A stretch of DNA of 63,837 nt from a virus (taxonomy: Duplodnaviria > Caudoviricetes). Shown one piece after another: positions 21,778 through 36,215 of the stretch. How positions within the stretch are numbered: position 1 is the first letter of the stretch; each line of letters begins with the position of its first letter. The notes under the pieces were generated by a model. It was given only the letters and a program-made list of their open reading frames with translations, was not told the DNA's origin and did not search any database. Position numbers and translations under genes: made by a program. The stretch is taken from positions 1 to 63,837 of the IMG/VR virus record IMGVR_UViG_3300032289_001441, one strand, 5' to 3'.

Positions 21778-21789
21778 GCTACTGGCAAA

Positions 21790-21825: not shown

Positions 21826-22021
21826 ACCAGCACACACGCACACACACACGCTCGAACCTCAGGGGCTGCCAGCGGCCGGAGGTGACCAGCACACACGCAC
21901 ACACACACGCTCGAACCTCAGGGGCTGCCAGCGGCCGGAGGTGACCAGCACACCAGCACACCAGCACACACACACACACGCTCGAACCTCAGGGGCTGCC
22001 AGCGGCCGGAGGTGACCAGCA
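21803..22021. repeat. ~59-bp tandem repeat (3 full + 1 partial) with (CA)n tracts
   Basis: ggggctgccagcggccggaggtgaccagca starts at 21803, 21862, 21921 and 21992. Confidence 0.95.
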
Positions 22022-22024
22022 TAG

Positions 22025-22118
22025 CCCCGACCGTGGAAACGAGCACCAACCCCGACCGTGGAAACGATACGATATCCCCGACCGTGGAAACGAGCACCAA
22101 CCCCGACCGTGGAAACGA
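22025..22118 (+). repeat. Four copies of 18-mer CCCCGACCGTGGAAACGA
   Basis: Exact copies at 22025, 22050, 22076 and 22101 (25-26 bp period). Confidence 0.95.
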
Positions 22119-22124
22119 TAGACC

Positions 22125-22409
22125 ATGAAAATCGAAACTGACGAATGGCTCCCCGTGATCGATGCCGGCAAGCTTGCCGGGTTGGATAAAACAACCGCGC
22201 TGCGCCTCGCGCGATCACTTGGGATCGTGCATACGTTTTTCGGCGTGAACATCATGCGAAAAGCAGACGTTGCAAAACTCGAAACCAACCGCCGCCGGCC
22301 TGGAAATCCCAACTGGATCGAATCGTGGGACGGCGCAGCCGCCGATGGTTCGCGAGGCGGTGAGGCTGCAAAAAAGGCCCGTACAGCGAAACGAGCACCC
22401 CGACCGTAA
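22125..22409 (+). CDS. Small HTH (excisionase/MerR-like) protein, left of array
   Basis: L...DA.KLAGL...T..R pattern; similar to 35628-35918. Confidence 0.65.
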   Translation: MKIETDEWLPVIDAGKLAGLDKTTALRLARSLGIVHTFFGVNIMRKADVAKLETNRRRPGNPNWIESWDGAAADGSRGGEAAKKARTAKRAPRP

Positions 22410-22438
22410 GAAACTTTCCACCCCAAAAGATTTTAGGG

Positions 22439-22466
22439 TTGACACAACAAAAGACGATGCTAGGAT
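22439..22466 (+). promoter_or_regulatory. Sigma70 promoter at head of cassette array
   Basis: TTGACA-16-TAGGAT with extended -10 TG. Confidence 0.75.
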
Positions 22467-22529
22467 AACACACAACACGGGAGGCACGTTGCCCCCCGAT
22501 CATGGAAACCCCCAACGAGGAAACGAGAC

Positions 22530-22769
22530 ATGACGGCTAAAAGCGACTCGCTTGTGCTGGAGAAGATGCGGCGCGGAATGGTGCTCTCGCAAAACAGTCA
22601 GGGAAACTACTGGCTCTTCGACGGCGGCGAGGTTGCCTGCCGCGTTACCGTCGATGCGGCCGAGCGTCTGATCGTCGCCATGAAAATCGTTCGCGACTAC
22701 AAAAACAGCGGCGCGTTCGGCATCAACTGGATGCCGGCCACGCAGCCCGATAGCACCGGCACCAACTGA
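22530..22769 (+). CDS. Hypothetical protein (array)
   Basis: GAGGAAACGAGAC-ATG leader. Confidence 0.75.
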   Translation: MTAKSDSLVLEKMRRGMVLSQNSQGNYWLFDGGEVACRVTVDAAERLIVAMKIVRDYKNSGAFGINWMPATQPDSTGTN

Positions 22770-22820
22770 ACCCCGACCGTCGAAACGATTCCACCCACAA
22801 CCCCTAAGAGGAAACGAGAC

Positions 22821-23018
22821 ATGACCAAGCTGGAGCGCGAACTACTGAAAGAATGCGAGACGATTGCCGCGGCCGATGGGCTGCGACTTGCCGATGTTCT
22901 CCGCGACTGTCACCGATTCTGGTGCGGTGCTGGTCGCAGCCTCAAGCCGCGGGGCTGGGCTGCCCGTGCCGCGGCGGCGGCTCGACTCGTCTCTCGGTTC
23001 AATTCGATAACTGCCTGA
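22821..23018 (+). CDS. Hypothetical protein (array)
   Basis: GAGGAAACGAGAC-ATG leader. Confidence 0.7.
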   Translation: MTKLERELLKECETIAAADGLRLADVLRDCHRFWCGAGRSLKPRGWAARAAAAARLVSRFNSITA

Positions 23019-23071
23019 CCGCAAACACACCCGTCCCTGGAAACCCAAACCCCCACCGAGGAAACGATCCC

Positions 23072-23323
23072 ATGATCATCGAAAACATCGACGACACATA
23101 CCCCGCCCAGTTTCGCATGGCCGGCACGGGCGAGATCATCGTGCCCGAGAGCGACGGCGGCACGGCCACGCTCCTGCGACAAATCCGCTGCATTCTCGAC
23201 GGCCACGGCACCCTGGATTTCTGCCCGACCACGGGCGAGTTGATCATTCGCACGGGGCTCGACGTTCAGATGGGCGGCGAGTTGGTGCCGATGGGTGATG
23301 ACAGCGACAGCGACGATGATTAG
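23072..23323 (+). CDS. Acidic hypothetical protein (array)
   Basis: GAGGAAACGATCCC-ATG leader. Confidence 0.7.
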   Translation: MIIENIDDTYPAQFRMAGTGEIIVPESDGGTATLLRQIRCILDGHGTLDFCPTTGELIIRTGLDVQMGGELVPMGDDSDSDDD

Positions 23324-23404
23324 ACTACCGCGCGACACAACGGCCACCGGCACGTTGCCGGCGGCACCCCCGACCGAGAGAACCCCGACAGAGGAAACGA
23401 GACG

Positions 23405-23638
23405 ATGAAACACGACATCCGACCCGGCGACCGCGTGGCCTACTCTGCCAAATTCCTCCGCTCTATCGGCTGCCGGACCGGCCCGATGCCGTTCGCCCGC
23501 GGGCGGGTGATCGCGTTGCGGCATTACGCCGGCGCGACGTTGGCGACGGTGGCGTGGAACGATCCCGTGATGCCCGACAGCGTGAACGTCGCCAATGTGA
23601 TTGCCGTCGCTGATATCGGCCTGGAATGCGTTGAATAG
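23405..23638 (+). CDS. Small SH3/KOW-like hypothetical protein (array)
   Basis: PGDRV..RG.V...V.W pattern; hairpin leader. Confidence 0.7.
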   Translation: MKHDIRPGDRVAYSAKFLRSIGCRTGPMPFARGRVIALRHYAGATLATVAWNDPVMPDSVNVANVIAVADIGLECVE

Positions 23639-23724
23639 ACCCCTGCTCAAGACAAACCCCGCCGGCGCGTTGCCGGCGGGGCCGACCGTGGAAACGAGAG
23701 AACCCCCCAAGAGGAAACGATCCC

Positions 23725-24927
23725 ATGAACACTGCAACCTTGAACGCTATTTCTCACAGCGATCTGCCCGCCGCGATGGCAGCCGTCGCCCGGTTTGCCG
23801 CCGGCAAGAGGTGCCCGCGGCCGATCCTGCAAAACGTGATGCTCTCGACCGGCGTGGCCGGCACGATGGTCGCAGCCACCGATCTGGAAACGCTGTGTGT
23901 TGTCCACATGCCCGGTGGCAGCGGCGACGGCAAGACGCTCCTGCCCGCCAGCATGGCGAAGCAGATCGCGAAGGAGAAGTGCTGCACGGTCGAATGCGAC
24001 GATGCCGGCGAAGACTCGACCGTGTCTGCCTGCGGCGTGACCGCGGCGGCCGGGGATACGCTGGAGTTTCCGCATTGCTGGCCCCTCGACCCGGCGGCTC
24101 CCGCCGTCCGCATTCCGTTTGAGGTTGTCGATCAGATCGACGGCGCGTGCTCGCCGGCCACCGATACGGAATCGTCCCGATACGCTCTCGGCGGGGTGCT
24201 GCTCGAAACCTCCGGCGATGACAAGCTCTATGCAATCGGCACGGATGGTCGCCGCCTTCACGCTCTGGGAGCCGCTGCCACGGTCGATGCACCGCTGATG
24301 GCAGTTGTCAGGCCCGGTGCCGTCGCGGGCTTCCTGAAGGCAGTGCGGGCCGTTGCCGCGGAAGTCTACGGGTTGAAGGGCAAAGCCCTTGCCGGCCGCC
24401 TGGAAGGGGATGCCGTGGAAATCCGCGCCGCCGCTAACACGGTGGAGTTCAAGTGGTATTCCCGCGGCTATACCGTCACGGTGAAAAGCCTCCCGGTCGA
24501 AGGCCGGTTCCCGAGGTGGCGGGATGTTTTCCCCGCGGGGTGCTGCGATGCCCCGGCCATCCGCATGGATGCCGGCGAAGCGGCGAAGCAGTTGAAGCAG
24601 GCAAAGGCTGCGACAAACGAGCAATGCCGCGGGGTGTTGTTCGCAGCCGGCCGCATGACCGCGGGGACAGTCGATGCCGGCCAGTATTCCGCGTGGATCG
24701 CGGGCGGCATGGGCGGCATGGGCGAATGCCAGCCGGTCAAACTCGACCCCGTTTATGTGCTCGCCGGCATCGCAGCCATCGATGCCGTCAAGGCTCCCGA
24801 CCAGTATCTGATCCATGTCAGAGACGGTCAGTCTGCCTGCTACATGCGGGCAGCCGGCGGCCACGATGCAAACGAGAAGGGGCAGGCCGGCCTGACGGTT
24901 GTGATCATGCCCCTTGCCGCCGATTGA
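23725..24927 (+). CDS. DNA polymerase III beta sliding clamp-like protein
   Basis: DnaN-type motifs PIL.NV, ATDLE, SRYAL.GV, TDGRRL, EGRFP.W..V.P. Confidence 0.85.
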   Translation: MNTATLNAISHSDLPAAMAAVARFAAGKRCPRPILQNVMLSTGVAGTMVAATDLETLCVVHMPGGSGDGKTLLPASMAKQIAKEKCCTVECDDAGEDSTVSACGVTAAAGDTLEFPHCWPLDPAAPAVRIPFEVVDQIDGACSPATDTESSRYALGGVLLETSGDDKLYAIGTDGRRLHALGAAATVDAPLMAVVRPGAVAGFLKAVRAVAAEVYGLKGKALAGRLEGDAVEIRAAANTVEFKWYSRGYTVTVKSLPVEGRFPRWRDVFPAGCCDAPAIRMDAGEAAKQLKQAKAATNEQCRGVLFAAGRMTAGTVDAGQYSAWIAGGMGGMGECQPVKLDPVYVLAGIAAIDAVKAPDQYLIHVRDGQSACYMRAAGGHDANEKGQAGLTVVIMPLAAD

Positions 24928-25021
24928 TTGCCCCCGAGTAAGACAAACCCCGCCGGCACGTTGCCGGCGGGGTGGCCCCCGTGGATGGAAACCTAAACCC
25001 CTAGAACGAGGAAACGAGACG

Positions 25022-25315
25022 ATGACTAAGACAACCAACAAACCCGCCCCCCGCAAGTTCACGCCGGCCACCGGCATCGGCTTCGACCTCACGGTCGAGG
25101 ACAGCGGCTACGGTCTGAAAAACGAGCCGGCAGTTGTGCTCTGCCTGCACACGATCTACGGCACCCGCGTGTATGGGCCGTTCGTGAACATTGCCGCCGC
25201 CCAGGCGTGGATCGGCAGCGATGCAGACGAGACGCTGGTCGTGTGCTACGGGTCGAGCCGCGACTGGTCGCTTCACGCCACAACGATGGAGGTGGACGGA
25301 CACTACCGCGACTGA
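25022..25315 (+). CDS. Hypothetical protein (array)
   Basis: Hairpin plus GAGGAAACGAGACG-ATG leader. Confidence 0.75.
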   Translation: MTKTTNKPAPRKFTPATGIGFDLTVEDSGYGLKNEPAVVLCLHTIYGTRVYGPFVNIAAAQAWIGSDADETLVVCYGSSRDWSLHATTMEVDGHYRD

Positions 25316-25398
25316 CCGGCGGCGGCGGGGGGTGGCCGGCGCGTTGCCGGCCACCCCGAGCGAGAGAACCTAAACCCCTGGAATGAGGAAACGAGACG

Positions 25399-25698
25399 AT
25401 GCCTGCAACACACCGAAAGAGCCGCCGCGATTATCCAGACGGCATTCTGGCGATCTATGACAACGGTGGCAGAACCGTAGACCGCTACTGCGTTGTGTAC
25501 GCTCCGTTCGCACTGGACGGGCGAACCTACTACCCAACTCTTCACATGAACGCCACGCCGACGCACCCCGCCGGCTACGGCATCCACGGCGAGTACGAGC
25601 GACGGCCGCGGCGGCTCCCAGGCGACCGCGTGATCTCGCTCGACGCGCTCCCCGAGGAGTGCCGGCGATGCGTCGAGGATGATCTGCGAGCCGACTGA
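25399..25698 (+). CDS. Hypothetical phage protein (YDNGG.T.DRY motif)
   Basis: Hairpin leader; motif seen in small phage early proteins. Confidence 0.75.
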   Translation: MPATHRKSRRDYPDGILAIYDNGGRTVDRYCVVYAPFALDGRTYYPTLHMNATPTHPAGYGIHGEYERRPRRLPGDRVISLDALPEECRRCVEDDLRAD

Positions 25699-25801
25699 CG
25701 GCCGCCCCTGGAACCGCCGGTGCCCGTGACCGGCGGCGAGGGGGATGCCGGCATCGTGCCTGCCCCGACCGAGAGAACCCGAGAACAAAGGAACCCCGAC
25801 T

Positions 25802-26221
25802 ATGGCAACGAAGAAGGCAGCGACAGAGAAGAAGGAATTCCGCGTCAGTCGCATCTGGACGGTGGAATACCGCTCCTATGCATTCGTCAAGGCGTCGAAC
25901 GCCGAGGAGGCCGCGAAGCTGGCCCTGGATGACGATGACTACAGCGATCAGGAGTCGCTCGATGGCAGCGACGGCCCGACCGAGATCGACGAGATCGTGG
26001 AGATCATGCCGGATGGCGGCGAGATCGAGCACGACATTCCGGTGGCAGACGAGGCCGAATACGCGGACGTGGCCTGGAGAGTCGAGGATATCAAGGAGCG
26101 CATGCCCGACTGGAGCAACAAGCGGTGCGCGAAGTGGCTTGAAATGAATGCGGACGCGATTCAAGTCGCGATGATCGATGCCGGCGGCGACGAGATCGAA
26201 CGAAGCCTGCCCCGCGAGTGA
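25802..26221 (+). CDS. Acidic hypothetical protein (array)
   Basis: AAGGA RBS, degenerate leader; V.ASNAEEA..LA motif. Confidence 0.75.
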   Translation: MATKKAATEKKEFRVSRIWTVEYRSYAFVKASNAEEAAKLALDDDDYSDQESLDGSDGPTEIDEIVEIMPDGGEIEHDIPVADEAEYADVAWRVEDIKERMPDWSNKRCAKWLEMNADAIQVAMIDAGGDEIERSLPRE

Positions 26222-26296
26222 TGACAAACCCCGGCCGGCGGCACGTTGCCCCGGCCGGCGAAACGAGACGAACCCTGGAACGAGAGGAACTGAATC

Positions 26297-26620
26297 ATGG
26301 CCGAGGCCCTGAAACTGATCTGCACGTTGAAGACGCACATAGTCGGCCCCGAGGGCGACTTTATCCCAGCCGGCACCCCCGTGCAGGTGATCGGATGGGA
26401 TGACGATGGCAAGAGCATCGAAGTACGCACGACGGCGCACGTTTATGTGGATGGCTGGGCTGGGATGTATGACGCGATTGAGGCTGGCGAGTCAACCGGA
26501 TTGATCGGCAGCGGCCTGTATGTGCCGGTGCCACCGGAGGCTCTCGTCTACAGCGAAGACACTCACATGACGTTGCTGAACGAACGCAAGAAGGCACGGC
26601 GCGAAGCCTGGGCCGACTGA
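26297..26620 (+). CDS. Hypothetical protein (array)
   Basis: Flanked by identical 38-bp hairpin elements. Confidence 0.75.
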   Translation: MAEALKLICTLKTHIVGPEGDFIPAGTPVQVIGWDDDGKSIEVRTTAHVYVDGWAGMYDAIEAGESTGLIGSGLYVPVPPEALVYSEDTHMTLLNERKKARREAWAD

Positions 26621-26689
26621 CTGACAGCCCCGGCCGGCGGCACGTTGCCCCGGCCGGCGAAACGATACCCCCGCAAGAGGAAACGACAG

Positions 26690-26935
26690 ATGAACCCGAC
26701 CATGAAACTGACCCCGACCGCCGGCCTCGCCACGCTCATGTGGTTCGCGCCGGCCCCGGCACCCAACGATATCGCCGCGATCATGCTCTCTCGCATTGTC
26801 GAGGCCCATGAGGCCGCGATGGAGGCGAACGATCTGCTAGCCGCGGGCGTGATCAGCACCGACCGCTACGAGCGGGCTGCGAATGATCGTGATGATGCTA
26901 TCGATGCCGCTGCGGAATTTCTGGGAGCACGATAG
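26690..26935 (+). CDS. Hypothetical protein (array)
   Basis: Hairpin plus GAGGAAACGA leader. Confidence 0.7.
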   Translation: MNPTMKLTPTAGLATLMWFAPAPAPNDIAAIMLSRIVEAHEAAMEANDLLAAGVISTDRYERAANDRDDAIDAAAEFLGAR

Positions 26936-27015
26936 CCCCTGGTGAAGACAATCGGGGCCGGCGCGTTGCCGGCCCCGTGGATGGAAACGAGAACCCCGTA
27001 GATAGGAACCAGACA

Positions 27016-27303
27016 ATGACAACCAAGAAACGGATAACGAAAGCGGAGCGAGCTAACCGCGACGGCATGATGCGGAAAATCGAGTGGTCGCGGATTCTCG
27101 TCCTGCGATGGTTGATTGAGGCTGGCTGGAGCAATCGCCGGCTGGCGAATACCTGGGCGACACTGGAGAGCGAGACAGCCCGCCTCGTCATCTCGCATTC
27201 GGTGCCGGATCACAATTGGTGCTGCGAAGTCGAGGTGGCTGGGATCGTGAAGGAGACGATGCTGGCGATCACGTTCACGCCTTGGGATGAGGTGGCCCGA
27301 TGA
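27016..27303 (+). CDS. Hypothetical protein (array)
   Basis: Hairpin leader, AGGA RBS. Confidence 0.7.
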   Translation: MTTKKRITKAERANRDGMMRKIEWSRILVLRWLIEAGWSNRRLANTWATLESETARLVISHSVPDHNWCCEVEVAGIVKETMLAITFTPWDEVAR

Positions 27304-27494
27304 AACCCATGCTGCCCTGGTGGAGTTGCTCCGCGCTGATCCTTGACGGTGAAGACGAGATCGATCTGGACGTTGACGTTCAGGCGGCAGATGCCGAGGC
27401 GGCCGAATACGATGCCCGAGAGCAGTGGATAGATCATGGGCACAATCCCGAGAAGGTGCGGGTGCGGATTATTGAGTGGAGGGTCGAGGAATGA
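27300..27494 (+). CDS. Acidic hypothetical protein
   Basis: ATGA coupling. Confidence 0.6.
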   Translation: MKPMLPWWSCSALILDGEDEIDLDVDVQAADAEAAEYDAREQWIDHGHNPEKVRVRIIEWRVEE

Positions 27495-27745
27495 GAAACG
27501 CGAACGGCCACGATCTCTATGTAAGCGATGCCACCTACGCGATCTCGCCACTGGTGCCGCGGGTGCTCCTGCGGTGCGAGCGGTGCGGGTGCCTGGGGGT
27601 CGGCATCATCGAAACGCAGGGGGACCGCGACTATGCGGCGACGATGGATCGCGAGTTCGATACGGGCGAGTGGTGGCACTTCGATGCGCTGCGGATCATC
27701 GGGTCGGCAGCCGCGGAGTGTACGGGCGCACACCACAATAAGTAG
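27491..27745 (+). CDS. Hypothetical protein with CxxC
   Basis: ATGA coupling, GAGG RBS. Confidence 0.6.
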   Translation: MRNANGHDLYVSDATYAISPLVPRVLLRCERCGCLGVGIIETQGDRDYAATMDREFDTGEWWHFDALRIIGSAAAECTGAHHNK

Positions 27746-27781
27746 ACTACCGCGACAGACAATGGTCTGCATTTTGTAGGG

Positions 27782-27810
27782 TTGACACACAGTCGGACAT
27801 AGCCGATAAT
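27782..27810 (+). promoter_or_regulatory. Sigma70 promoter
   Basis: TTGACA-17-GATAAT; upstream context ttt..agggttgacac shared with the 22439 promoter. Confidence 0.75.
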
Positions 27811-27873
27811 GATTGCACATGCGGAGGCACTGTGCCGATGCTGGACTCGAGTCCAACGATGGAGGATAGAGCG

Positions 27874-28056
27874 ATGAAGAAGAACAACACGCAGGAATAT
27901 CGTGGCTACAAAATCGTGCGGCTGCCTCGACGCTGGGTTGTGCTGAACAAATGCGACAGTCAAGTGGCTGCCTTTAGCACACTCTCAGCCGCCAAGGCCC
28001 AAATCGATCGGTTTGTTGACCCTACTGATGCCAGCGACTACGGATGCCCGATCTGA
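27874..28056 (+). CDS. Hypothetical protein (array)
   Basis: GGAGG RBS; EYRGY.I..F.TL.AAKA.ID pattern. Confidence 0.7.
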   Translation: MKKNNTQEYRGYKIVRLPRRWVVLNKCDSQVAAFSTLSAAKAQIDRFVDPTDASDYGCPI

Positions 28057-28121
28057 CCGGCCATCGCCCGCTGGCAACTGGGCCAGCGGGCAACACGAAA
28101 ACGAGACACAAGGGCACACAG

Positions 28122-28331
28122 ATGAGCAAGGTTCTCAGCGACTTGGCGAAGCGGCACCCCGAGAAGATCGACAGCATCGATCGCGACGATACCGGGTGGA
28201 TCATCAACCTGACCGATGCCTGGGTCGAGGACAGCGACCCCGCCCAGGCGAGCCATATGATTTTCGAGGACACGGTCGCCCAGTGCGTTGCCGCCTTCCG
28301 TTCCATCCGCAAAGCAAGGAAAGGCGAGTGA
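28122..28331 (+). CDS. Hypothetical protein (array)
   Basis: Variant hairpin plus AAACGAGAC leader. Confidence 0.65.
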   Translation: MSKVLSDLAKRHPEKIDSIDRDDTGWIINLTDAWVEDSDPAQASHMIFEDTVAQCVAAFRSIRKARKGE

Positions 28332-28334
28332 CGC

Positions 28335-28649
28335 ATGACCGGCTACCAACTCTCCCCCAGGATCACGCTCCACCCCGGCGACCGCTTCCGCGTGGCCGGC
28401 GGCCCGTACTACCGGCTGGCATCCGGCGAGAAGGTGCCACTCGCCGCCCGTGGCGTGTTCACGCTGCTGGCGGTCGATGCCGGCCGGCGTGGCAGGGTGC
28501 AGCTACTGGCCTACGGTGCCGGAGGCTTCGCGGTGATCCACGTTGCCGGCCGGCGGCGGTCGCGGGTTCCTGGGCTCGTCTGCCGGCCTTACCGGGTACG
28601 GAGGGTGGGTGCTCAGAAAAATCCGCGAGGCCGGAGAAAATCCGCTTGA
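28335..28649 (+). CDS. Basic hypothetical protein
   Basis: ORF following 28331. Confidence 0.6.
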   Translation: MTGYQLSPRITLHPGDRFRVAGGPYYRLASGEKVPLAARGVFTLLAVDAGRRGRVQLLAYGAGGFAVIHVAGRRRSRVPGLVCRPYRVRRVGAQKNPRGRRKSA

Positions 28650-28675
28650 CTACTGGTGGAGAGTTTGTTTAGGAT
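28646..28675 (+). promoter_or_regulatory. Sigma70 promoter
   Basis: TTGACT-18-TAGGAT. Confidence 0.6.
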
Positions 28676-28757
28676 TGACCCGCGACGAGACGATACTAGA
28701 AGGGGCACGTTGCCCCGGCCGTGGAAACGAGAAACCCCCGACAGAGGAAACGCGACG

Positions 28758-29084
28758 ATGAAGACCGTGAAATACACCATGTCCGACCATCTTTTCGAGC
28801 TGCACGACAACCTAGTGATCAACTACCCAGGCCGGCTGGCACCCGTCGCCACAGTGACCGCGATGGCAGCCGTGGCGAACGTGGCTCGCCGGTTCCGGCT
28901 GCGGTCGGTGGCCCGCTACATGGCGGCCTGGGCCTACGACATTGCCGATGTGCCGATGAAGGCGGATGCGTTCGATGCCCATGAGCGGCTCATGCCTTGG
29001 GCATGGCACAAGAGCCGGCCTGCCCTGCGTTGGTGGGTCTATGCCGAGAAGGCCCGCGCGGTGCTGGCGACGATTCAAGGCTGA
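28758..29084 (+). CDS. Hypothetical protein (array)
   Basis: Hairpin plus GAGGAAACGCGACG-ATG leader. Confidence 0.7.
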   Translation: MKTVKYTMSDHLFELHDNLVINYPGRLAPVATVTAMAAVANVARRFRLRSVARYMAAWAYDIADVPMKADAFDAHERLMPWAWHKSRPALRWWVYAEKARAVLATIQG

Positions 29085-29146
29085 TCCCCGCCGGCACGTT
29101 GCCGGCGGGCGGGACACGAGAAACCCCCGAACGAGGATACGAGACG

Positions 29147-29506
29147 ATGAGCCGAATGAAAAATGCGATCATTGCCTGTTGGGATGCGGACGCGATCCCC
29201 GTCCCAGGTGGCACCGTGAAGAAGTGGCGGGCGGCGGGCCATGCGGCCCCGACAATCCGAGTGCCCGTGACTGGCTACAACGGGCAGACGATCATGCTCC
29301 GCGCCATGCGGCACCGTGATGCCAGTGCGATGGCTATGCGGCTGGAGGGGTCGAGCGACGGCCGCCGGCTATGTCGCGAACTGACTGCCCTGCGGAAGTA
29401 TCGGTACATGGCTTTGCCATGCCGATGCGGTGCCTGCGGTGTTCGCGGGCAGCGGCACTTCTTTGTGAATACCGGGGCGGAGACGCTCTGCGTGAATTGT
29501 GGGTGA
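29147..29506 (+). CDS. Hypothetical protein with C-terminal Zn-ribbon (CxxC..CxxC)
   Basis: Flanked by identical 35-bp hairpin elements. Confidence 0.7.
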   Translation: MSRMKNAIIACWDADAIPVPGGTVKKWRAAGHAAPTIRVPVTGYNGQTIMLRAMRHRDASAMAMRLEGSSDGRRLCRELTALRKYRYMALPCRCGACGVRGQRHFFVNTGAETLCVNCG

Positions 29507-29590
29507 TCCCCGCCGGCACGTTGCCGGCGGGCGGGACAGATACGAAACTACACTACCCCCGGCCGGGGGAAACCTAAGAGGAGAGCGACG

Positions 29591-30535
29591 ATGAAGACGG
29601 CAACAAAAAAGGTGACCTACACGGCGACATTTCAGGAGAGCATCGCGGGCGCGGTGCTGGTGAACGTGGCTCGCAATCGGCGGCGGCTCGACCTGGGCAA
29701 TCTGCCGTCTGGCGTGATTGACTATCTCAGCCTGAAGAAGTCGGGCAGCGGGTGCTGGGTTTTCGATATCGATGGGCATCAGAAGTTTGATGATCTCGTC
29801 GCCTGCGCCGAGGTGACCGAAAAGAAGCAGGGCAAGAAGAAAGCACCCCGTCGAGCTACCGCGACATTTACCGTCGAGTCTTACAACGTCGAGCAGATTG
29901 AGCCGGCCGAGCAACTGCCGAATACATGGGGCGACGGTGCGAAGTGGGGCGTGAGCGACTGGTATGAGGAGTTAGAGACTGCAATCGCCGCTGCCCTCGT
30001 CCGCGGCAAGAGCTATGCCTGGACGACCGGATGGTATTCATCCAAGAAGGAAATCATGTCGGCTCGCATCTCGCAGCGTGGCGGCGAGATCACCGTCGAG
30101 GTGAGCGTCAGCGATGACTTCGATACCGAGGGTCGCGGCGAGCGGACGATCAAGTTCACCAAGCGGCTCGACCGCATCCGCGAGGCACTTGATGCCGCGG
30201 CAGATGCCGCCGAGAGCGACCGCCACGAAAACCAGTGCTATCACGGGTTCAGCGTAGGCCAAAAAGGTGCCTGGGAATTCACTCTAATCCTGCCCAATGG
30301 CGACGGATATCTGATGGACTCGCCGCCGGGAGACAACTATCACCGCTGGGGCTGGCAGGAAGTCGAGGACGGTGAGGATCGGCCGGCAGAGATTTCTGCC
30401 GATGACGCTGCGAGCCTCCTGGCGGCCGCGCACAGTTTCATCGACGGCGAAGTGTCAAGCCGGAAGCAGTGGGCAGTGGTCTGCGGCGGCGGCGAGTGGA
30501 CGATCCGGGCATGGGAGGACGAATCCGATGCCTGA
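29591..30535 (+). CDS. Hypothetical protein (314 aa, array)
   Basis: Hairpin leader, GAGGAG RBS. Confidence 0.8.
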   Translation: MKTATKKVTYTATFQESIAGAVLVNVARNRRRLDLGNLPSGVIDYLSLKKSGSGCWVFDIDGHQKFDDLVACAEVTEKKQGKKKAPRRATATFTVESYNVEQIEPAEQLPNTWGDGAKWGVSDWYEELETAIAAALVRGKSYAWTTGWYSSKKEIMSARISQRGGEITVEVSVSDDFDTEGRGERTIKFTKRLDRIREALDAAADAAESDRHENQCYHGFSVGQKGAWEFTLILPNGDGYLMDSPPGDNYHRWGWQEVEDGEDRPAEISADDAASLLAAAHSFIDGEVSSRKQWAVVCGGGEWTIRAWEDESDA

Positions 30536-30818
30536 CTTCAACATCGAATCGCACTGGTGCTGCTCGACCGCTCGCCACTGGCAGGCAATCATCGACGGGC
30601 ACCGAGTCGCCTGGGAACCCCTGCCGCCGTCCGCGAATGTCGGCTACGGGTTTGTGTGCGACTGCAAGGGGTACAAGTTCAGGAAAACGTGCCGGCACGT
30701 TAAGGCGGCAGAGTCGATGCGATGCGGATGGCAGGCATTCGTCCACGGCGGCGAGCAGGTCGATGGTCGATGCCCGCGATGCGGCGGCGAGGTGACGGCA
30801 GAGAGCTATGCGGTCTGA
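30528..30818 (+). CDS. SWIM zinc-finger protein
   Basis: CxC...CxH (CDCKGYKFRKTCRHV) plus C-terminal CPRCG. Confidence 0.75.
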   Translation: MPDFNIESHWCCSTARHWQAIIDGHRVAWEPLPPSANVGYGFVCDCKGYKFRKTCRHVKAAESMRCGWQAFVHGGEQVDGRCPRCGGEVTAESYAV

Positions 30819-30882
30819 TTGGGATGGCAGCCAGCGCGGCTGCCCCCTGGAACGTGGAAACCTAGAGACGAGGAGAACGACG

Positions 30883-31038
30883 ATGGCAAAGAAGAAGGCA
30901 GCGAAGAAGGCGACAACGAGCGGCAAAGCGGCAGACGTTCTGCCGGGGATGCCGGGTAAGTTTGTGGTGATGAGCATGAGTGGTAAGCAGAATGAGGCAA
31001 TCGCCGCAGCGATGCGGAAGATGCTTGGCGGCGGTTGA
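30883..31038 (+). CDS. Small basic protein
   Basis: GAGGAGAACGACG-ATG leader. Confidence 0.6.
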   Translation: MAKKKAAKKATTSGKAADVLPGMPGKFVVMSMSGKQNEAIAAAMRKMLGGG

Positions 31039-31139
31039 GCCGACCCCCCGCTCCCCCCGCACGGCGAAACGCTGGCGGGGATTGCGGCGGGCCAGCGTGG
31101 CCCCGAGCGTGGAAACCATAGAAGACTAGGAGAGCGACG

Positions 31140-31409
31140 ATGACAGCGACGGCGAAAATCACACTGCGGATCGACAGCAACATCCAAGGCGATGCCCGCG
31201 TGGAGCTATGGGAGGTGTGCTGCGGGTCATACCCCGTGATCGAGATGAGCGACGACAGCGACATCGACTTCGATGCCTGGGAGGTCAAGCAGATCGACGG
31301 CACCAGCGGCGAGCGGTATCGCGACGAGCAGGAGACGCTCTGCCACTGCATCTACCGCATGGGCTATCTGATCGACGGATACGGCAGCGACGAGTGGATC
31401 ATTCAGTAA
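31140..31409 (+). CDS. Acidic hypothetical protein (array)
   Basis: Box plus AGGAG leader. Confidence 0.7.
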   Translation: MTATAKITLRIDSNIQGDARVELWEVCCGSYPVIEMSDDSDIDFDAWEVKQIDGTSGERYRDEQETLCHCIYRMGYLIDGYGSDEWIIQ

Positions 31410-31462
31410 CAGAACCAATTCCCCCAGCCGGCCCCGGCCGGCGAAACCTAAGGAGCATGACG

Positions 31463-31708
31463 ATGACGACAACAATCAAGCTGACGAACCGCTGGCAGAC
31501 GATCTGCACGGTCGGCTACACGGGCGGCGTGAGCCGCGACGAAAACCGCTCCGCTCACGGTGGCGTTTGCCACTGCCAAGCGAGGCGGGCGAAGGACGGC
31601 ACGATCATGGGCAGAAAAGTGAACAGCAACGGCAGGCACGAGGAGGTCGGCGAGCCGTTCGCGATTGACGAAGATCGCGTGCGGCACTGGGCAGCGATTG
31701 GCGGCTGA
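31463..31708 (+). CDS. Hypothetical protein (array)
   Basis: ccggccggcgaaac plus AGGAG leader. Confidence 0.65.
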   Translation: MTTTIKLTNRWQTICTVGYTGGVSRDENRSAHGGVCHCQARRAKDGTIMGRKVNSNGRHEEVGEPFAIDEDRVRHWAAIGG

Positions 31709-31768
31709 CCCCCGCCCCGTGGAAACCTTTACCCGATTACCCCATGCCGCCCCGAGCGGCGAAGCGAG

Positions 31769-32341
31769 ATGACCATGCCATACTCGACTCATGTCTCCGA
31801 ACTCCGCACAGCGCGGCTGCGGCCATACGTCGCAGCCGCCTGGGCGGAGGCCGGAAGCTATTCGACGGATGACCTCGCGGCCATCGTCGGCCGTGCCGGT
31901 CGCCGGCAGAGCCTGCGAGCCGAGGCCGCCTGGAAGTTTGCGGACGAGGCGGCGACTGAGGCCGAGGAGCGGGATGCCGCCGACGCCGAGAAAGCCGAAC
32001 GAGAGGCAGCGGAGCTGGCTGAATATCTCGCGAGGAGGGCGGCAGTCGATGCCGCCCGCCGGGGGGCCGAGGCCGCCTGCGCCGCCGCAGGCTGGACGAT
32101 GACTTGGAGGCATGGCAGTGCCGGTGGCTCGATGTATTTCTGGATCGTTGGCCCTGGCGACGACGACGAGCGGATGAGCCTGCGGATCAGCGACCACATA
32201 GCCCCCGGCGGGGCAGGGTGGAGCGACGAACGGCAGGAGCGTCACGCCGAGCCCGATCTGAACATTGTGATTCGCCGCGGAGCGGGCGGCGAGTACACGC
32301 ACGATTTGACCCCGCTCGTGGAAACGATTGGCAGCAACTAA
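31769..32341 (+). CDS. Hypothetical protein with S.Y...LRISDH motif
   Basis: 190 aa ORF with box upstream. Confidence 0.7.
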   Translation: MTMPYSTHVSELRTARLRPYVAAAWAEAGSYSTDDLAAIVGRAGRRQSLRAEAAWKFADEAATEAEERDAADAEKAEREAAELAEYLARRAAVDAARRGAEAACAAAGWTMTWRHGSAGGSMYFWIVGPGDDDERMSLRISDHIAPGGAGWSDERQERHAEPDLNIVIRRGAGGEYTHDLTPLVETIGSN

Positions 32342-32381
32342 CCCAGCCGGCCCCGGCCGGCGAAACATCAGGAGCACGACG

Positions 32382-32576
32382 ATGAGAAACTTGAACATCA
32401 CTATCAGCGCGGAGGAGGAGGAGGCATTGCGGCGGTCGATTGCCGGCCTCGTCGCGGACGAGCGGCAACGGTTCTTCGGCCGGAAGCGGCAGAGCAAGAT
32501 GGAGCAGGCAGCCGAGCGTCTCTACGAGAAGATTTTTGAGCGCAGCCCGTGCGGATCTTCGCAGCCAGTCAAATAA
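32382..32576 (+). CDS. Hypothetical protein (array)
   Basis: Leader nearly identical to that at 31423. Confidence 0.65.
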   Translation: MRNLNITISAEEEEALRRSIAGLVADERQRFFGRKRQSKMEQAAERLYEKIFERSPCGSSQPVK

Positions 32577-32603
32577 CCCCCGACCAACGAAACGAACACA
32601 ACC

Positions 32604-32960
32604 ATGATGGGAATAAACATCAACGACAAGACGCAGCCCTTCACCGCTCAGATTCTGAGCGGCGAGAAGACGGTCGAGACGCGGCGAACCAACTCGCTGC
32701 ACCCCTATGTGGGGCAGCGGGTAGGCATCGTCCGCACCGGCCGTGGCAAGGCGACAATGGTCGGCTACGCGACCATTGGCGAGCCGATCCGCTACGAGCA
32801 CCAGAAGCAGTTTGCGGCCGACTACGCTCGCCACCGGGTGGCGGCGGGCTCCCCGCATGACTGCGGCACCGATGGCAAGTTTGGCTACATCCTGATCGAT
32901 GTTGAGGCGACTACCCCCAGGCCGGTGACGAGCCGCGGGATCGTGGCGAGAAGAATCTGA
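32604..32960 (+). CDS. ASCH/PUA domain protein
   Basis: QPF...ILSG.KTVETR signature. Confidence 0.8.
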   Translation: MMGININDKTQPFTAQILSGEKTVETRRTNSLHPYVGQRVGIVRTGRGKATMVGYATIGEPIRYEHQKQFAADYARHRVAAGSPHDCGTDGKFGYILIDVEATTPRPVTSRGIVARRI

Positions 32961-33044
32961 CAGAGCACAAAAAACTTTTTGTGCGACCACAAAAAACATT
33001 TTCCCAGCGACAGCAAAAACACGGCGAAAACAAGTTTTCTGAGA

Positions 33045-33061
33045 TTGGCACGCTGTGTGCA
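33045..33061 (+). promoter_or_regulatory. Candidate sigma54 (-24/-12) promoter
   Basis: TTGGCACG-CTGT-GTGCA, GG-N10-GC spacing, preceded by A-tracts. Confidence 0.5.
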
Positions 33062-33125
33062 ATAGCAACACCCGACCGAGCAAACGATAACCCTAACCCT
33101 AACCCCTAGTACGAGGAAACGAGAC

Positions 33126-33746
33126 ATGACCACGAAGACAAAGAAGCACGGCGTGATCGTCACGATTGGCGGCAAGCACAACACGAAGACGGTCTGGAAC
33201 CGCGGCCACCGGATGATCACCTACCGCAGGCAGCCGAGGCGTATCCGGTTCAGGTCGAAGATGGTGAACGACAAGAATCAGCACCTCTGCGGAGGCTGGG
33301 GATTCGCCGGCCTGGAGGACAACAACCTGTGGATCGAGCGGCAGCTTATCGCCGGCCGGAAGCCGTTCGGTGTGATGTTCTTCTGGGGGCCGGAACTCGA
33401 GCACGGCGAGCACATCGCCTGCGCCGAGCGTCTGCGAGCCGCCGGCCTCGTTGTCCGCGAGGGGGCTGGGTTCGTTAAGGGCACGAGGATCGTGGAAGCC
33501 TGCCACGACATTCGCGTGGCCGACATCGGCGACATGGGCGAGTTGCTCGCCGATTACGTCAAGGCACTCATCCCAGAGTACGAGGACGATCTTCGCGACG
33601 AGTTCAAGCGATACGGTGGCCGGCGGCTACGCTCCTTCATGGGCAAGCGTTGGGATACCGAGCATAACCCGCTGTGGCTGACCGGCCTCATCCTGGGCTA
33701 CCCCGTCGAAAACACGATCAGTTGCTATCACGAAGCGGTTTCGTGA
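33126..33746 (+). CDS. Hypothetical protein (GLILGYP motif)
   Basis: GAGGAAACGAGAC-ATG leader. Confidence 0.75.
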   Translation: MTTKTKKHGVIVTIGGKHNTKTVWNRGHRMITYRRQPRRIRFRSKMVNDKNQHLCGGWGFAGLEDNNLWIERQLIAGRKPFGVMFFWGPELEHGEHIACAERLRAAGLVVREGAGFVKGTRIVEACHDIRVADIGDMGELLADYVKALIPEYEDDLRDEFKRYGGRRLRSFMGKRWDTEHNPLWLTGLILGYPVENTISCYHEAVS

Positions 33747-33816
33747 TCCACCCGCGCTCGAGGGCCGCCGCCACCCCCGAGCGTGATAACCCCGAGCGGC
33801 GAAAGCAGAGGAGACG

Positions 33817-34197
33817 ATGACAAAAGAAGGATTCAGGATCGACAAGAAGAAGAGAATGTCGAAGAAGGCAGTCTGTGCCTACTTCGGCGAGCGCGGGATG
33901 CCGGTATCCCCCGCCGAGGTGGCCTTCCACGCGGTCGGCACGTTCACGAGCAGGAAGTGGGATCACGAGCACGGCGGTCGCTCGACCGATGAGCTGGAGA
34001 CGATCCCCGCCCTGGCCGTGATCATCAAGGAGCGTCCGAAAGGCATCTGCGACTGGGGCGATACGGACGATGGCCGGATGGATGTCTATGCTCTGAACGA
34101 CATCTACGGCGAATGCCAGGATGACGTTCCGGCACCGAAGTACGCGATCGCTGCGGCGAAGAGGGCGGCCCGACCGACGAAACGAGGTGCGACATGA
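33817..34197 (+). CDS. Hypothetical protein (array)
   Basis: Box plus GAGGAG RBS. Confidence 0.7.
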   Translation: MTKEGFRIDKKKRMSKKAVCAYFGERGMPVSPAEVAFHAVGTFTSRKWDHEHGGRSTDELETIPALAVIIKERPKGICDWGDTDDGRMDVYALNDIYGECQDDVPAPKYAIAAAKRAARPTKRGAT

Positions 34198-34475
34198 AAA
34201 AAGACGACCGCGTGATGCGGGACTATGTGATGGGTGGCAACTACGTTGGCACAGTCGCGACGATCTGCTCCCTCCGAGAAAACGGGTGGAGCGTCGAAGA
34301 GATTGCAGCCCAGATGCCAATCATCGGCAAGACCTGTGGCAACGAGGCAATACGAGCGGCCGGCTTGAACGGCGGGCCTCGAGTTAGTTCGCTCTACGAG
34401 CACATGAACCTGTTCGGAGAGCAATTGTGCGAGAGACTGCGTGAACTGCGGACGATGGACATTTCCACCAACTAA
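34194..34475 (+). CDS. Hypothetical protein
   Basis: ATGA coupling, GAGG RBS. Confidence 0.65.
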   Translation: MKKDDRVMRDYVMGGNYVGTVATICSLRENGWSVEEIAAQMPIIGKTCGNEAIRAAGLNGGPRVSSLYEHMNLFGEQLCERLRELRTMDISTN

Positions 34476-34488
34476 GGAGACCCCGACC

Positions 34489-34665
34489 GTGAGAAACCGA
34501 ATCACGCCCTACGAGGCCGGCTGGCTGACATTCTTGGTCAGCTCCGGCATCGCCAGCGAGGCCGACTGCCGCGCCGCGATGAATCGCGTGGCCCAGGAAG
34601 CCCTCGACGAGATCAATCGCCTGCGGGCGAAAAAGAGGGCTGGAAAACGTCGCAAGGATCGATAG
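34489..34665 (+). CDS. Small hypothetical protein
   Basis: AAGGAG RBS, GTG start. Confidence 0.5.
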   Translation: MRNRITPYEAGWLTFLVSSGIASEADCRAAMNRVAQEALDEINRLRAKKRAGKRRKDR

Positions 34666-34727
34666 GCTACTAGCCGATAGTAAATAGGCTACCAAGGAAG
34701 ATTAACCACGAAGAAAGGAGGCTCAGA

Positions 34728-35039
34728 ATGAGCCATGCAGCAGGAGATACGGTTTGGGTAGGCACGTCTCATGTCGGATACGACGGGCTCTCTCGCGGCC
34801 ATGTGCTGCGAGCGGACGTTGTCGCCGTCATCGACGGGTCGGTGATGATCAGATACCCCGCCAGCGGAACGATCCGAGCGGTCGAGAAGACAGCCGAGAC
34901 AATCTGCGACAGTGAGTCGGACGCCTGGGCGGCAGTGGCTCGCGAGCTGACTCAGGCCCGCGACCGCGTGCAGGCTGGAATCGATGAGGCGACCGCCAGG
35001 GCGGCCGGCAGTCGCGTCGGGGAGGCCGTGCCAGCATGA
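34728..35039 (+). CDS. Hypothetical protein
   Basis: AAGGAGG RBS. Confidence 0.7.
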   Translation: MSHAAGDTVWVGTSHVGYDGLSRGHVLRADVVAVIDGSVMIRYPASGTIRAVEKTAETICDSESDAWAAVARELTQARDRVQAGIDEATARAAGSRVGEAVPA

Positions 35040-35238
35040 ACCCCCGAGCGTGGAAATGGGTCATGGATGACCTGATCCGCACGCTCGTGCTCGTCAGACT
35101 CGGGCAATTGCTCGGGTCTGAGAGCACGGCGGCGCGGGCCGTCCACGATCTCGTCGAGGCTGTTTTTTCGATTGTCAGATGATGGGATGGACGCATAGAA
35201 TGACAACCCTACCCGAGCATGGAAACGAGAGGATCACG

Positions 35239-35628
35239 ATGAAATACGTTCTGAGCGACATTGCCGGCGAAAACTTCCGGCTGGCCGATGGGATGTGGAG
35301 CGAGGAGATCGACCTCGCGGAGCGGTTCTCGTTCGACGCCGCCCAGGTGCGGATCGAGGAACTGGCCGCGGATGGCGTTCACTGCAAAGCCGTCGAGACG
35401 CACGGCAGGAAGCGGAAGACATCCGAGTCGATCGTCAACCGCGTCACCAAGGCGCTCGACAAACTCGAGCGCCAGTGGGAGGGAAAAACAATCGGCATCG
35501 GCTACGAGGTCGATGTCGAGGTTGGGCAGATCATCCTGACCCTGGAGCCCGATGGAGAGCCCGAGCTTTCCTTGAACATCAGCGTAGACATCTCCGGCGT
35601 TTTCGTCGGGGTCGGAGACGAGAACTAA
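35239..35628 (+). CDS. Hypothetical protein (array)
   Basis: cccgagcatggaaacgagagga leader. Confidence 0.7.
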   Translation: MKYVLSDIAGENFRLADGMWSEEIDLAERFSFDAAQVRIEELAADGVHCKAVETHGRKRKTSESIVNRVTKALDKLERQWEGKTIGIGYEVDVEVGQIILTLEPDGEPELSLNISVDISGVFVGVGDEN

Positions 35629-35918
35629 TGGCAACCATCGAGATCAAAGAATATCTGACAATCCAGCAGGCCATGAAAGCTCTCGGATGCCCCCGGCGAA
35701 CGCTAGCCAGGGCGGTGTCGCGGGCGGAGGCGGCCGGCAAAAAGATCGTCGAGGAGTTCCTGGGCAAGCCGGTGATCCACAAGTCGAAGATCGCCGTGCT
35801 CAAGGAGTTCTACTACCCCTACGGCTCGCCGGCCCACCAGAAGATGGTGAAGCAGTGGGGGGCAGCCGGTGGCGCGCAGAAGCGAGTCAACCGGGAGAAG
35901 GCCGAGCGGCGTCGTTAA
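35628..35918 (+). CDS. Small HTH (excisionase/MerR-like) protein, right end of array
   Basis: YLT..QA..ALG....TL.R pattern; similar to 22125-22409. Confidence 0.7.
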   Translation: MATIEIKEYLTIQQAMKALGCPRRTLARAVSRAEAAGKKIVEEFLGKPVIHKSKIAVLKEFYYPYGSPAHQKMVKQWGAAGGAQKRVNREKAERRR

Positions 35919-35927
35919 AGGCTGCCT

Positions 35928-36215
35928 TTAGCATGAGTCCCTCGCCGTCCGTTTGCTATGGCATGGCTTGCATAACGTCCTGAGATTCGACAGCGCGTCT
36001 GTGCCACCCTTCGACTTCTCCACGATATGGTCGATGTCGGGGCTGCCCGTGACGAGCAGCCCGCACAACTGGCAGATGCCCATGTCGCGAGCGATCACGG
36101 CCAGCCGGGTTCGCCGCCACGCCGCGGTGCAGTAGCCGCGGGCTGCCGCCGTCGGCCGCTCCTGCCCCCGTGCAGGGGAACGATCAGGACGGTAGGTCGG
36201 TATTCTTTTCGGCAC
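35928..36215 (-). CDS. HNH endonuclease (packaging-associated, HK97 gp74-like)
   Basis: W...R..V..RD..CQLC, DHI, GG..NL..LC..CHS.RT. Confidence 0.9.
   Translation of the reverse strand: MPKRIPTYRPDRSPARGQERPTAAARGYCTAAWRRTRLAVIARDMGICQLCGLLVTGSPDIDHIVEKSKGGTDALSNLRTLCKPCHSKRTARDSC

Follow-up and report, generated by a model that had tools for sequence, protein, structure and literature searches.

Covarying hairpins and a repeated leader unit between the small genes of a one-strand island in an uncultured phage

The DNA considered here is the IMG/VR record IMGVR_UViG_3300032289_001441 (Duplodnaviria; Caudoviricetes), a whole virus record of 63,837 bases with a completeness rating of 100%, which was analysed over its full length and is referred to below as the window. 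Our subject is an island of small genes on its + strand, at ~20.3–36.2 kb, and the linkers between these genes, which carry a family of hairpins with one fixed apex, GGCRCGTTGCC (type-A hairpins), together with a repeated unit of ~24 nt. The record encodes a terminase, a portal protein, a protease–capsid fusion, a major capsid protein, a tape-measure-sized protein of 1,719 amino acids and tail proteins, as well as two helicases, a primase–polymerase, PhoH, an HNH endonuclease and a tyrosine integrase. Its structural and replication genes are nearly all on the - strand, and genome GC is 61%. None of the 67 open reading frames (ORFs) of the window scanned against Pfam matched an RNA polymerase or a sigma factor. 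We propose that the phage is an uncultured temperate siphophage, siphovirus-like in its make-up and transcribed by the RNA polymerase of its host.

In the island the AT skew is reversed and 37 genes are called, arranged as follows:

20338–21777, + strand: gene 1, GP88-family (Pfam/PHROG match).
22125–36242, + strand: one-strand island of ~36 small genes, to which gene 1 is additional.

GC at third codon positions (GC3) is mostly 0.7–0.86 in the island genes, a coding signature shared with the structural genes. The long - strand ORFs of the same region have GC at first positions (GC1) above GC3 and are, on this ground, antisense shadows; there are no real - strand genes in the island. Pfam and PHROG gave no match at the thresholds used for 31 of the 37 island proteins, most of them with coding-type GC3, which agrees with the ~30 orphan genes (ORFans) counted in a first-pass annotation made from the letters and a list of ORFs. 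Gene 7 is clamp-like (phrog_947, E 4.5e-17), gene 9 matches a PHROG of unknown function, gene 28 has a borderline ASCH domain and gene 31 a weak DUF433 match. Gene 36 has a weak helix–turn–helix (HTH) match, its Pfam matches all falling below the curated cut-offs, and gene 2 is without a Pfam match. Genes 2 (22125–22409) and 36 (35628–35918) both encode small HTH-like proteins with Lys/Arg-rich C-terminal tails, and they bracket the island.

The apex GGCRCGTTGCC occurs 11 times in the window, every time on the + strand and between called genes (positions 22483, 23349, 23664, 24955, 25338, 26240, 26639, 26960, 28704, 29093 and 29515). Only 0.13 copies are expected by chance, none of 100 shuffles reached 11, and a reversed-pattern control gave 0 matches. 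Each copy caps a hairpin with a stem of 6–13 bp and a loop of 3–5 nt, with minimum free energies from -12.7 to -34.1 kcal/mol. The copies are listed here, with scores from the covariance model described below:

22478–22498, + strand: copy 1, stem of 9 bp including one A.C mismatch, 13 nt past the -10 element of promoter P1; 32.8 bits.
23343–23365, + strand: copy 2, 19 nt past the stop codon of gene 5, kept with gene 5 in the relatives G004 and G024.
23657–23681, + strand: copy 3, apex G variant (G.U), between genes 6 and 7; 46.9 bits.
24947–24973, + strand: copy 4, after gene 7, stem near-identical to that of copy 3.
25329–25357, + strand: copy 5, 13-bp stem of different sequence.
26230–26260, + strand: copy 6, 1-nt bulge in the stem, upstream of gene 11.
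26629–26659, + strand: copy 7, stem as in copy 6; copies 6 and 7 flank gene 11.
26953–26977, + strand: copy 8.
28702–28716, + strand: copy 9, short stem of 6 bp, past promoter P3 and gene 18.
29087–29109, + strand: copy 10, 2 nt past the stop codon of gene 19.
29509–29531, + strand: copy 11, 2 nt past the stop codon of gene 20 and 97% identical to copy 10 over 38 nt, so that gene 20 is flanked by direct repeats.

The stems of these copies differ in sequence and remain complementary. Within the window 85.1% of the 121 stem cells pair, 6 of the 11 pairs have changed on both sides, and there are 16 compensatory cells, compared with 6.5 ± 1.8 in shuffled alignments; the covariation score was reached by 0 of 500 shuffles. 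The 11 copies were used to make a covariance model, and a search of the window with its filters off recovers them at 32.8–46.9 bits and finds no type-A hairpin outside the island. Its next match, at 19.1 bits, is the reverse strand of a true copy, and the best unrelated match scores 18.0 bits. GC-rich hairpins in general show no enrichment in the island (72 of a window-wide total of 296), and the signal is therefore specific to the GGCRCGTTGCC family and not a property of GC-rich palindromes. No Rfam family matched the window at the gathering score, nor 21700–36300 at E ≤ 1. The hairpin element is thus real, statistically solid and uncatalogued. Nearly all of what the first-pass annotation had said of it holds: 11 intergenic hairpins of one strand with a shared GGC(A/G)CGTTGCC apex, stems exactly as quoted there, structure conserved over sequence, and no copies outside the island. 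Its statement that most copies start 0–30 nt past a stop codon is correct for nine, which begin 2–19 nt past the upstream stop, and does not extend to those at 22483 and 28704, which follow a sigma70-like promoter instead.

The island linkers also hold structures of other kinds. A second module has been delimited:

31416–31466, + strand: type-B module, hairpin GCCGGC-CCCG-GCCGGC with a GAAAC leader; a second copy, 88% identical, lies at 32335–32385.

Hairpins of this GCCGGC-CCCG-GCCGGC form, counted as a third type, precede genes 25 and 27. A larger structure stands before gene 24 (31039–31139), where nested GC-rich stems (CCCCCG...CGGGGG) with a GAAA-containing loop are followed by a box; four structures of this type occur in a row in the relative G025 (L093 8368–9590). 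Given three structure types in the island linkers, several hairpin families occupy one slot.

Downstream of the type-A hairpins the linker continues with sequence elements that the first-pass annotation had described as a GAAAC or GAGAAC box and a leader. Their order was described correctly, since a G[AG]AAC box lies within ~35 nt after all 11 hairpins and the exact leader GAGGAAACG stands behind 7 of them, with variants behind the other 4. Their separation into two parts has to be abandoned. From 167 intergenic regions of 10 islands a consensus was drawn for leader-type copies near the start codon (n = 65) and for box-type copies lying upstream (n = 135), and both gave CCCCGAnCGnnGAAACGA; box and leader are one ~24-nt unit in two versions. 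The copy nearest the start codon has GAGG as its Shine–Dalgarno (SD) sequence, and the upstream copies usually have GTGG or GGCG. Most island genes start behind one to three copies of the unit, the last of which supplies the SD (GAGGAAACGAGACG-ATG). All 18 occurrences of GGAAACGA in the window are on the + strand inside the island, GAAACGA is found 30 times on the + strand and 0 times on the - strand, and the - strand genes are without the ~24-nt unit. Outside the phage contig, GGAAACGA is not enriched in the 3-Mb metagenome-assembled genome (MAG) G024, with 51 forward and 62 reverse matches vs 54 and 66 for the reversed control. Pairing between the loop and the box (CACGUU with AACGUG) was considered and rejected, as the window boxes are mostly ACCGUG and loop variants are unmatched by changes in the box. 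The box was likewise rejected as an alternative promoter, either of the extracytoplasmic function (ECF) type or -10-like, as inspection found no consistent second element at the right spacing.

Units are also found in tandem at the start of the island, next to a longer repeat:

21803–22021, + strand: 59-bp repeat in 3.5 tandem copies, at the island start, between the GP88-family gene and gene 2.
22021–22124, + strand: four tandem box units CCCCGACCGTGGAAACGA with a period of 25–26, directly upstream of gene 2 (small HTH protein).

Similar unit arrays stand at the island start in relatives. Many relatives' contigs end ~0.6–2 kb upstream of the terminase, near the 21803–22124 repeats. This repeat region may be a genome end, a packaging site, an origin or a region to which a regulator binds.

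Promoter-like sequences adjoin some of the hairpins:

22439–22466, + strand: sigma70-like promoter P1, TTGACA-16-TAGGAT, 10/12.
27782–27810, + strand: sigma70-like promoter P2, TTGACA-17-GATAAT, 11/12, followed by the degenerate hairpin GGCACTGTGCC.
28646–28675, + strand: sigma70-like promoter P3, TTGACT-18-TAGGAT, 9/12, kept downstream of gene 18 in the relative G001.

Each of the three lies just upstream of a hairpin, which in the case of P2 is the degenerate copy. A scan of 20000–37000 returned 7 promoter-like sites vs 3.1 expected, 3 of them in hairpin-adjoining linkers. Linkers longer than 5 nt number 23, and a promoter stands beside the hairpin in only 3. On the + strand the 10 nt after the stem contain 0–2 T in all 11 copies, that is, no U-tract; on the - strand 6 of the 11 copies have 5–6 T in 10 nt, and three are flagged as terminator-like. 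Further along the island, gene 29 is preceded by an A+T-rich spacer of 165 nt (32961–33125), in which there is a perfect hairpin with A/T-rich arms (32965–32984). A site resembling the -24/-12 promoter class (TGGCACGCTGTGTGCA) lies near 33046; in G004 and G007, no such sigma54-like site was found upstream of the homologues of gene 29.

The hairpin family extends to related phages, whose records or islands carry 1 to 7 type-A hairpins. A family alignment was made from 40 covariance-model matches at E ≤ 0.001 from 15 sources (the window and 14 relatives' loci). In this alignment, which is nearly ungapped and, being fitted to the model, favours the model's structure, 91.1% of cells pair and 7 of 11 pairs have changed on both sides. 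There are 59 compensatory cells vs 20.0 ± 3.2 in shuffles, 0 of 500 of which reach that number, and pairing falls to 31–68% in slid registers. The covariance search of relatives that the first-pass annotation had recommended therefore returned significant covariation. Almost no variation is seen in the three G-C/C-G pairs below the loop; at the top pair, 28 copies have A-U and the other 12 have G-U. The relative G001 has a variant apex, GGTGCGTTACC, with T-A in place of one C-G pair and the loop unchanged. As this variant swaps one of the 'invariant' pairs, what is fixed is the loop together with its closing pairs, and the remainder is conserved as structure only. G001 has kept the leader unit and largely lacks type-A hairpins. 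A composite pattern of apex and core was found at 20 loci on 18 viral contigs. In the contig of G024 (C18), the hairpins at L086 7063–7101 and 6183–6221 have the 3-nt loop inverted relative to gene direction. One of them is the orthologue, with the same stem, of the window copy after gene 5, and the inversion is an event in the DNA, a flip of the segment enclosed by the two arms of the inverted repeat.

How the linkers relate to the genes on either side was followed across 10 islands with gene clusters defined at ≥ 30% identity over ≥ 60% of length. Clusters 5, 6, 19, 20, 45 and 62 keep a hairpin 2–24 nt past their stop codon although their downstream neighbours have changed, and clusters 7 and 62 keep the last 12–16 nt of their leader although their upstream neighbours have changed. 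These conserved flanks lead us to assign the hairpin, as a 3' element, to the upstream gene and the SD leader to the downstream gene. Homology breaks at variable points between the 3' arm of the hairpin and the leader. Most window genes at 22.5–34.2 kb have no homologue in the nine other islands. Clusters 32–37 (34489–36135) are conserved and colinear across islands, and clusters 18, 20 and 6 shift position relative to other shared genes. BLASTN blocks shared by the window and its relatives begin or end in hairpins (29102–29531 with L082; 23030–23364 with L083).

When 22400–34400 of the window was compared with 13 further viral records carrying the composite module, nine had matches. Of the 77 nucleotide matches, 70 fall for the most part within linkers, whose share of the query is 15.5%, and genes 18 and 6 are the only ones to match as genes. 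Near-identical linker copies (identity up to 97% over 38 nt) stand on either side of genes 7, 11 and 20. Across these records the conserved DNA is that of the linkers, while the genes between them vary. None of the 13 is close to the window phage, and consequently no recent event of gain or loss has been caught. Gene content across the elements, which the first-pass annotation had proposed to compare, is neither fixed nor colinear in relatives, and its idea of a modular expression unit tied to small one-strand genes is borne out by conserved linkers and variable genes. Its wider wording, an expression and/or recombination unit, survives as regards expression; a dedicated recombination system is not supported, given a distant generic integrase, conservation at the apex and variable breakpoints.

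The phage belongs to a large group known from uncultured material. Megablast against GenBank phages gave no close cultured relative, and the best cultured terminase match is 44.5% identical; IMG/VR holds 122 relatives of the terminase at 70–99% identity, and MAG bins with such relatives fall in four unrelated lineages. Among the island genes, gene 21 has relatives in other phages only at 33–49% identity, and for the clamp gene (gene 7) tblastn confirmed no relative in viral contigs, a homologue in G002 having been found by blastp. In G003 and G006, two relatives classed with direct terminal repeats, the island starts within ~1.5 kb of the contig start, which fits, without proving, an early region at the genome end that enters first. 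The island is probably a hyperplastic early region, and that some of its genes serve against host defences is something we only infer. Outside the island, a ferritin-like (Dps-type) gene lies between the portal and protease–capsid genes (16459–16932), and weak glycosyltransferase-like genes are found in the structural and replication arms (11414–12142 and 39459–40433).

One island gene invites consideration as the source of a protein that reads the hairpins:

28335–28649, + strand: gene 18, Arg-rich, 104 amino acids, predicted Tudor/KOW-like beta-barrel.

Within the variable part of the island gene 18 is shared more widely than any other gene, and it belongs to a conserved family (60–92% identity) of Arg-rich phage proteins of 100–110 amino acids, with a predicted Tudor/KOW/SH3-like barrel and a basic tail. 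All of its 161 homologues lack Pfam domains and are named no more specifically than 'hypothetical protein', and in the Protein Atlas the best score (0.86) was to unnamed viral clusters only. The structure model is a beta-barrel with a mean predicted local distance difference test (pLDDT) score of 84.8. Foldseek returned nothing for it at E ≤ 0.001, and a wide structure search (VIA) gave Z ≤ 7.1, where values below 8 are, by the tool's own note, in the range of common arrangements. The tightest superpositions were on the RNA-polymerase-binding Tudor domains of UvrD/PcrA and on KOW domains (Z 5.5–6.0; root-mean-square deviation, rmsd, 1.3–2.3 Å), with NusG and CarD lower (Z 4.9–5.0; rmsd 2.6–2.9 Å). 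The likeness of the modelled fold is no more than a lead. Three relatives with type-A hairpins, G004 and G005 (both 100% complete) and G024, yielded no gene 18, which on that account is not an obligatory partner of the hairpin; G001 has gene 18 and only variant hairpins. With no Foldseek match, Z ≤ 7.1 and no strict co-occurrence, gene 18 was rejected as the hairpin reader.

We read the linkers, with a probability of about one half, as modules of RNA-level punctuation and translation whose conserved sequence also offers patches of homology for the shuffling of ORFans, similar to the promoter-early stem-loop (PeSL) cassettes of T4-type phages though without a promoter in each module. Island genes would be joined by a composite linker, made of the 3' hairpin of the upstream gene and then one to three CCCCGAnCGnnGAAACGA units. 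The hairpin would be an RNA signal that punctuates long + strand transcripts, being a site at which they are attenuated or cut, or one that gives 3'-end protection to every upstream message; the constancy of the loop would imply a sequence-specific reader, either a protein or an RNase. The leader unit would serve as a standardised translation-initiation region, the last copy carrying the SD of the downstream gene. Action as + strand RNA is favoured because the copies are co-oriented with the genes, lie in the 5' leaders of presumed primary transcripts and after stop codons, occur in an island without - strand genes, and have an apex G variant that pairs as G-U on that strand only. An intrinsic terminator requires a U-tract, and an RNase III site has about two helical turns of (interrupted) duplex. 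We speak of punctuation because the U-tract of a textbook terminator is missing here and the stems are too short for a textbook RNase III site. The linkers would double as short homology patches at which phage or host recombination could delete, insert or reorder genes, since they are the only DNA conserved across otherwise unrelated ORFans. Such recombination might then cause the mosaicism and not merely accompany it, a role suggested by the comparative patterns described here and by experiments on PeSL modules in T4-type phages (PMC2839356).

Several observations weigh against this reading. Covariation demonstrates that the hairpin forms and not in which molecule. Folding energies are similar on both strands, and outside the top R:T pair the G.T and A.C mismatches of the 25 distinct hairpins number 6 each, which leaves the strand call uninformative; a role as single-stranded DNA or as a cruciform is possible. 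Three of the 40 family matches are read on the opposite strand, namely the two loop-flipped copies of the G024 contig and one at L071, a locus that scores on both strands, so either loop orientation is not absolutely required or opposite-strand copies are decaying. Stems of 9–13 bp are short for RNase III and the + strand has no U-tract, and thus neither textbook processing nor textbook termination fits. The search for a reader produced no protein, the best candidate, gene 18, being absent from what was found in the hairpin-bearing G004, G005 and G024. Selection that follows random illegitimate recombination would likewise be expected to leave breakpoints at gene borders, and the gene calls in relatives come from a crude caller based on GC3 and SD.

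Other explanations share parts of this evidence. The ~24-nt unit could be a DNA site for a phage regulator, like the stoperators that serve as regulator sites in cluster A mycobacteriophages, with the HTH protein of gene 2 or gene 36 shutting the island in lysogeny or later in infection and the hairpin a separate matter. The unit is asymmetric, intergenic, restricted to one strand and present at most island genes; its four tandem copies stand directly upstream of the HTH-like, basic-tailed gene 2, arrays recur in relatives, the phage has an integrase, and the retention of the unit in G001, largely without type-A hairpins, makes the parts separable. As the HTH assignments are weak for both genes, and a start-proximal copy that doubles as SD is more simply explained by a role in RNA or translation, we regard such a site as unlikely, though by no means far-fetched. 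A fixed loop over a free stem is also the anatomy of an RNA hairpin read by a protein, and the hairpins might be attenuators or terminators that are read through with the help of a loop-recognising antitermination factor, as in the N–boxB system of lambda. The candidate would be gene 18, which is so widely shared, adjoins P3 with its hairpin, and is modelled as a barrel best superposed on RNA-polymerase-binding Tudor and KOW domains. Those superpositions stay within common arrangements, however, the distribution of gene 18 does not follow that of the hairpins, one site per gene far exceeds N-type usage, and there is no U-tract; antitermination is therefore a rather improbable account. Little can be said for hairpins acting as intrinsic terminators of the - strand that stop antisense transcription into the island. 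The 5–6 T after 6 of the 11 copies, which are the complement of the conserved AAGACAAAC flank, and the three flagged copies would agree with it, but the other 5 have 0–4 T, the island has no real - strand genes, the copies sit far to the left, 7–14 kb from the convergent - strand genes at 36.3 kb, the apex G variant becomes a C.A mismatch on that strand, and terminators need no fixed loop. We consider this highly improbable.

The remaining alternatives place the element at the level of DNA. A selfish or neutral repeat, similar to repetitive extragenic palindromic (REP) sequences or miniature inverted-repeat transposable elements (MITEs), would owe its constant apex to recent common descent, and adjacent copies are indeed often most alike, with copy number ranging from ~1 to 11 among relatives. 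Yet among phages with terminases only 74–95% identical the stems have diverged with compensation under a constant apex, the copies are strictly intergenic and on one strand, and the 19-nt core has single matches in at least 120 unrelated genomes with no REP-like multicopy host among the matches listed; this origin seems very doubtful. Integron-like cassettes, with a 3' hairpin folded in single-stranded DNA, a dedicated recombinase and excision as circles, would account for a hairpin that stays with the upstream ORF as attC does, for genes lying between near-identical copies and for the loop inversion over an unchanged stem in G024, which took place at the level of DNA. Single-stranded DNA could adopt the structure equally well, and a tyrosine recombinase with an N-terminal SAM-like domain is present. 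This sole recombinase (56294–57202) is, however, a generic tyrosine integrase, 20 kb from the array and beyond the replication genes; it matches the NCBIfam models XerD, XerC, XerA and PRK00283 at 30–41 bits vs cut-offs of 220–335, with no integron-integrase equivalog. Conservation lies in the apex and not in paired basal core sites, and the breaks in homology are variable, so that site-specific cassettes of this kind are very unlikely. A broader form of the idea would make each ORFan portable as leader, ORF and 3' hairpin within a dedicated cassette system, its apex read both as RNA and as extruded or single-stranded DNA. A factor reading the RNA would set the fate of each message, a structure-specific recombination activity would capture, excise and reorder cassettes, and the loop inversion in G024 would be a footprint of the DNA activity. 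If true, this would amount to an integron-like capture platform in a lytic-cycle early region, operating without IntI; we hold it to be a long shot.

Phage early regions hold most of the unexplored small genes, among them genes for anti-defence and host takeover, and how early genes are rapidly exchanged without breaking their expression is poorly understood. In the present case conservation is higher in the linker than in the genes on either side of it, and the linker is defined sharply enough to be searched for with a covariance model and the 24-nt unit. It occurs in a large uncultured clade (the 122 terminase relatives, with the composite module on 18 viral contigs) and thus gives a handle for finding ORFan cassettes in metagenomes. 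Modular shuffling of the PeSL type can also be put to a concrete test on it in phages that are not T4-type. From the fixed loop a specific reader is predicted. The principle itself is not new, since PeSL and the start-associated sequences of mycobacteriophages are published analogues.

Among known systems, the early region of T7 has hairpins between early genes on a transcript made by the host polymerase, and RNase III cuts at them to give discrete, 3'-protected messages. The hairpins of the window likewise lie between presumed early genes and after presumed early promoters. They differ in that the T7 sites have longer, interrupted stems, whereas here continuous stems of 6–13 bp carry a fixed loop sequence of 3–5 nt, and RNase III does not need a fixed loop sequence. 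Integron attC cassettes consist of a promoterless ORF and a 3' imperfect inverted repeat, arrayed in one orientation and sharing conserved basal core sites. The island resembles them as a one-orientation array of ORFs with 3' inverted repeats and departs from them in the lack of IntI, in a conserved apex in place of basal core sites, and in having no fixed crossover point.

A further likeness is to the start-associated sequences (SAS) and their extended form (ESAS) in cluster K mycobacteriophages (Pope et al. 2011, PMC3203893), whose function is still described as open in a later account (PMC12699233). SAS are short, oriented, SD-containing motifs just upstream of the start codons of some non-structural genes; an inverted repeat precedes about half of them, and their number varies among relatives. 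In sequence they are unrelated to the island linkers: the 13-bp SAS consensus, as given by Pope et al., is found in the window 0 times at ≤ 2 mismatches and 9 times at 3 mismatches vs 19.1 expected, and none of its matches at ≤ 3 mismatches in the window is at an island start codon. The ESAS are described with conserved arms of 17 bp around a variable spacer, in contrast to the fixed apex and covarying arms found here, and the island hairpin goes with the upstream gene.

The closest analogue, both in layout and in the part played in evolution, is the PeSL cassettes of the T4-type phages RB49 and phi1, for which recombination between modules, terminator activity and mini-circles have been shown experimentally (Arbiol et al. 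2010, PMC2839356). A sigma70 early promoter is part of every PeSL but of only 3 linkers here, and the PeSL loop is not fixed, in contrast to the fixed 11-nt apex and the additional repeated unit of ~24 nt in the island. Those phages are T4-type myoviruses and ours is temperate, siphovirus-like and of 61% GC, with recombination between modules suggested by comparative patterns. The likeness lies in a repeated intergenic module running from stop codon through stem-loop and SD to start codon; in ORFan-rich hyperplastic regions where such modules flank genes that differ between relatives; and in short patches of homology available to recombination, with no dedicated recombinase known.

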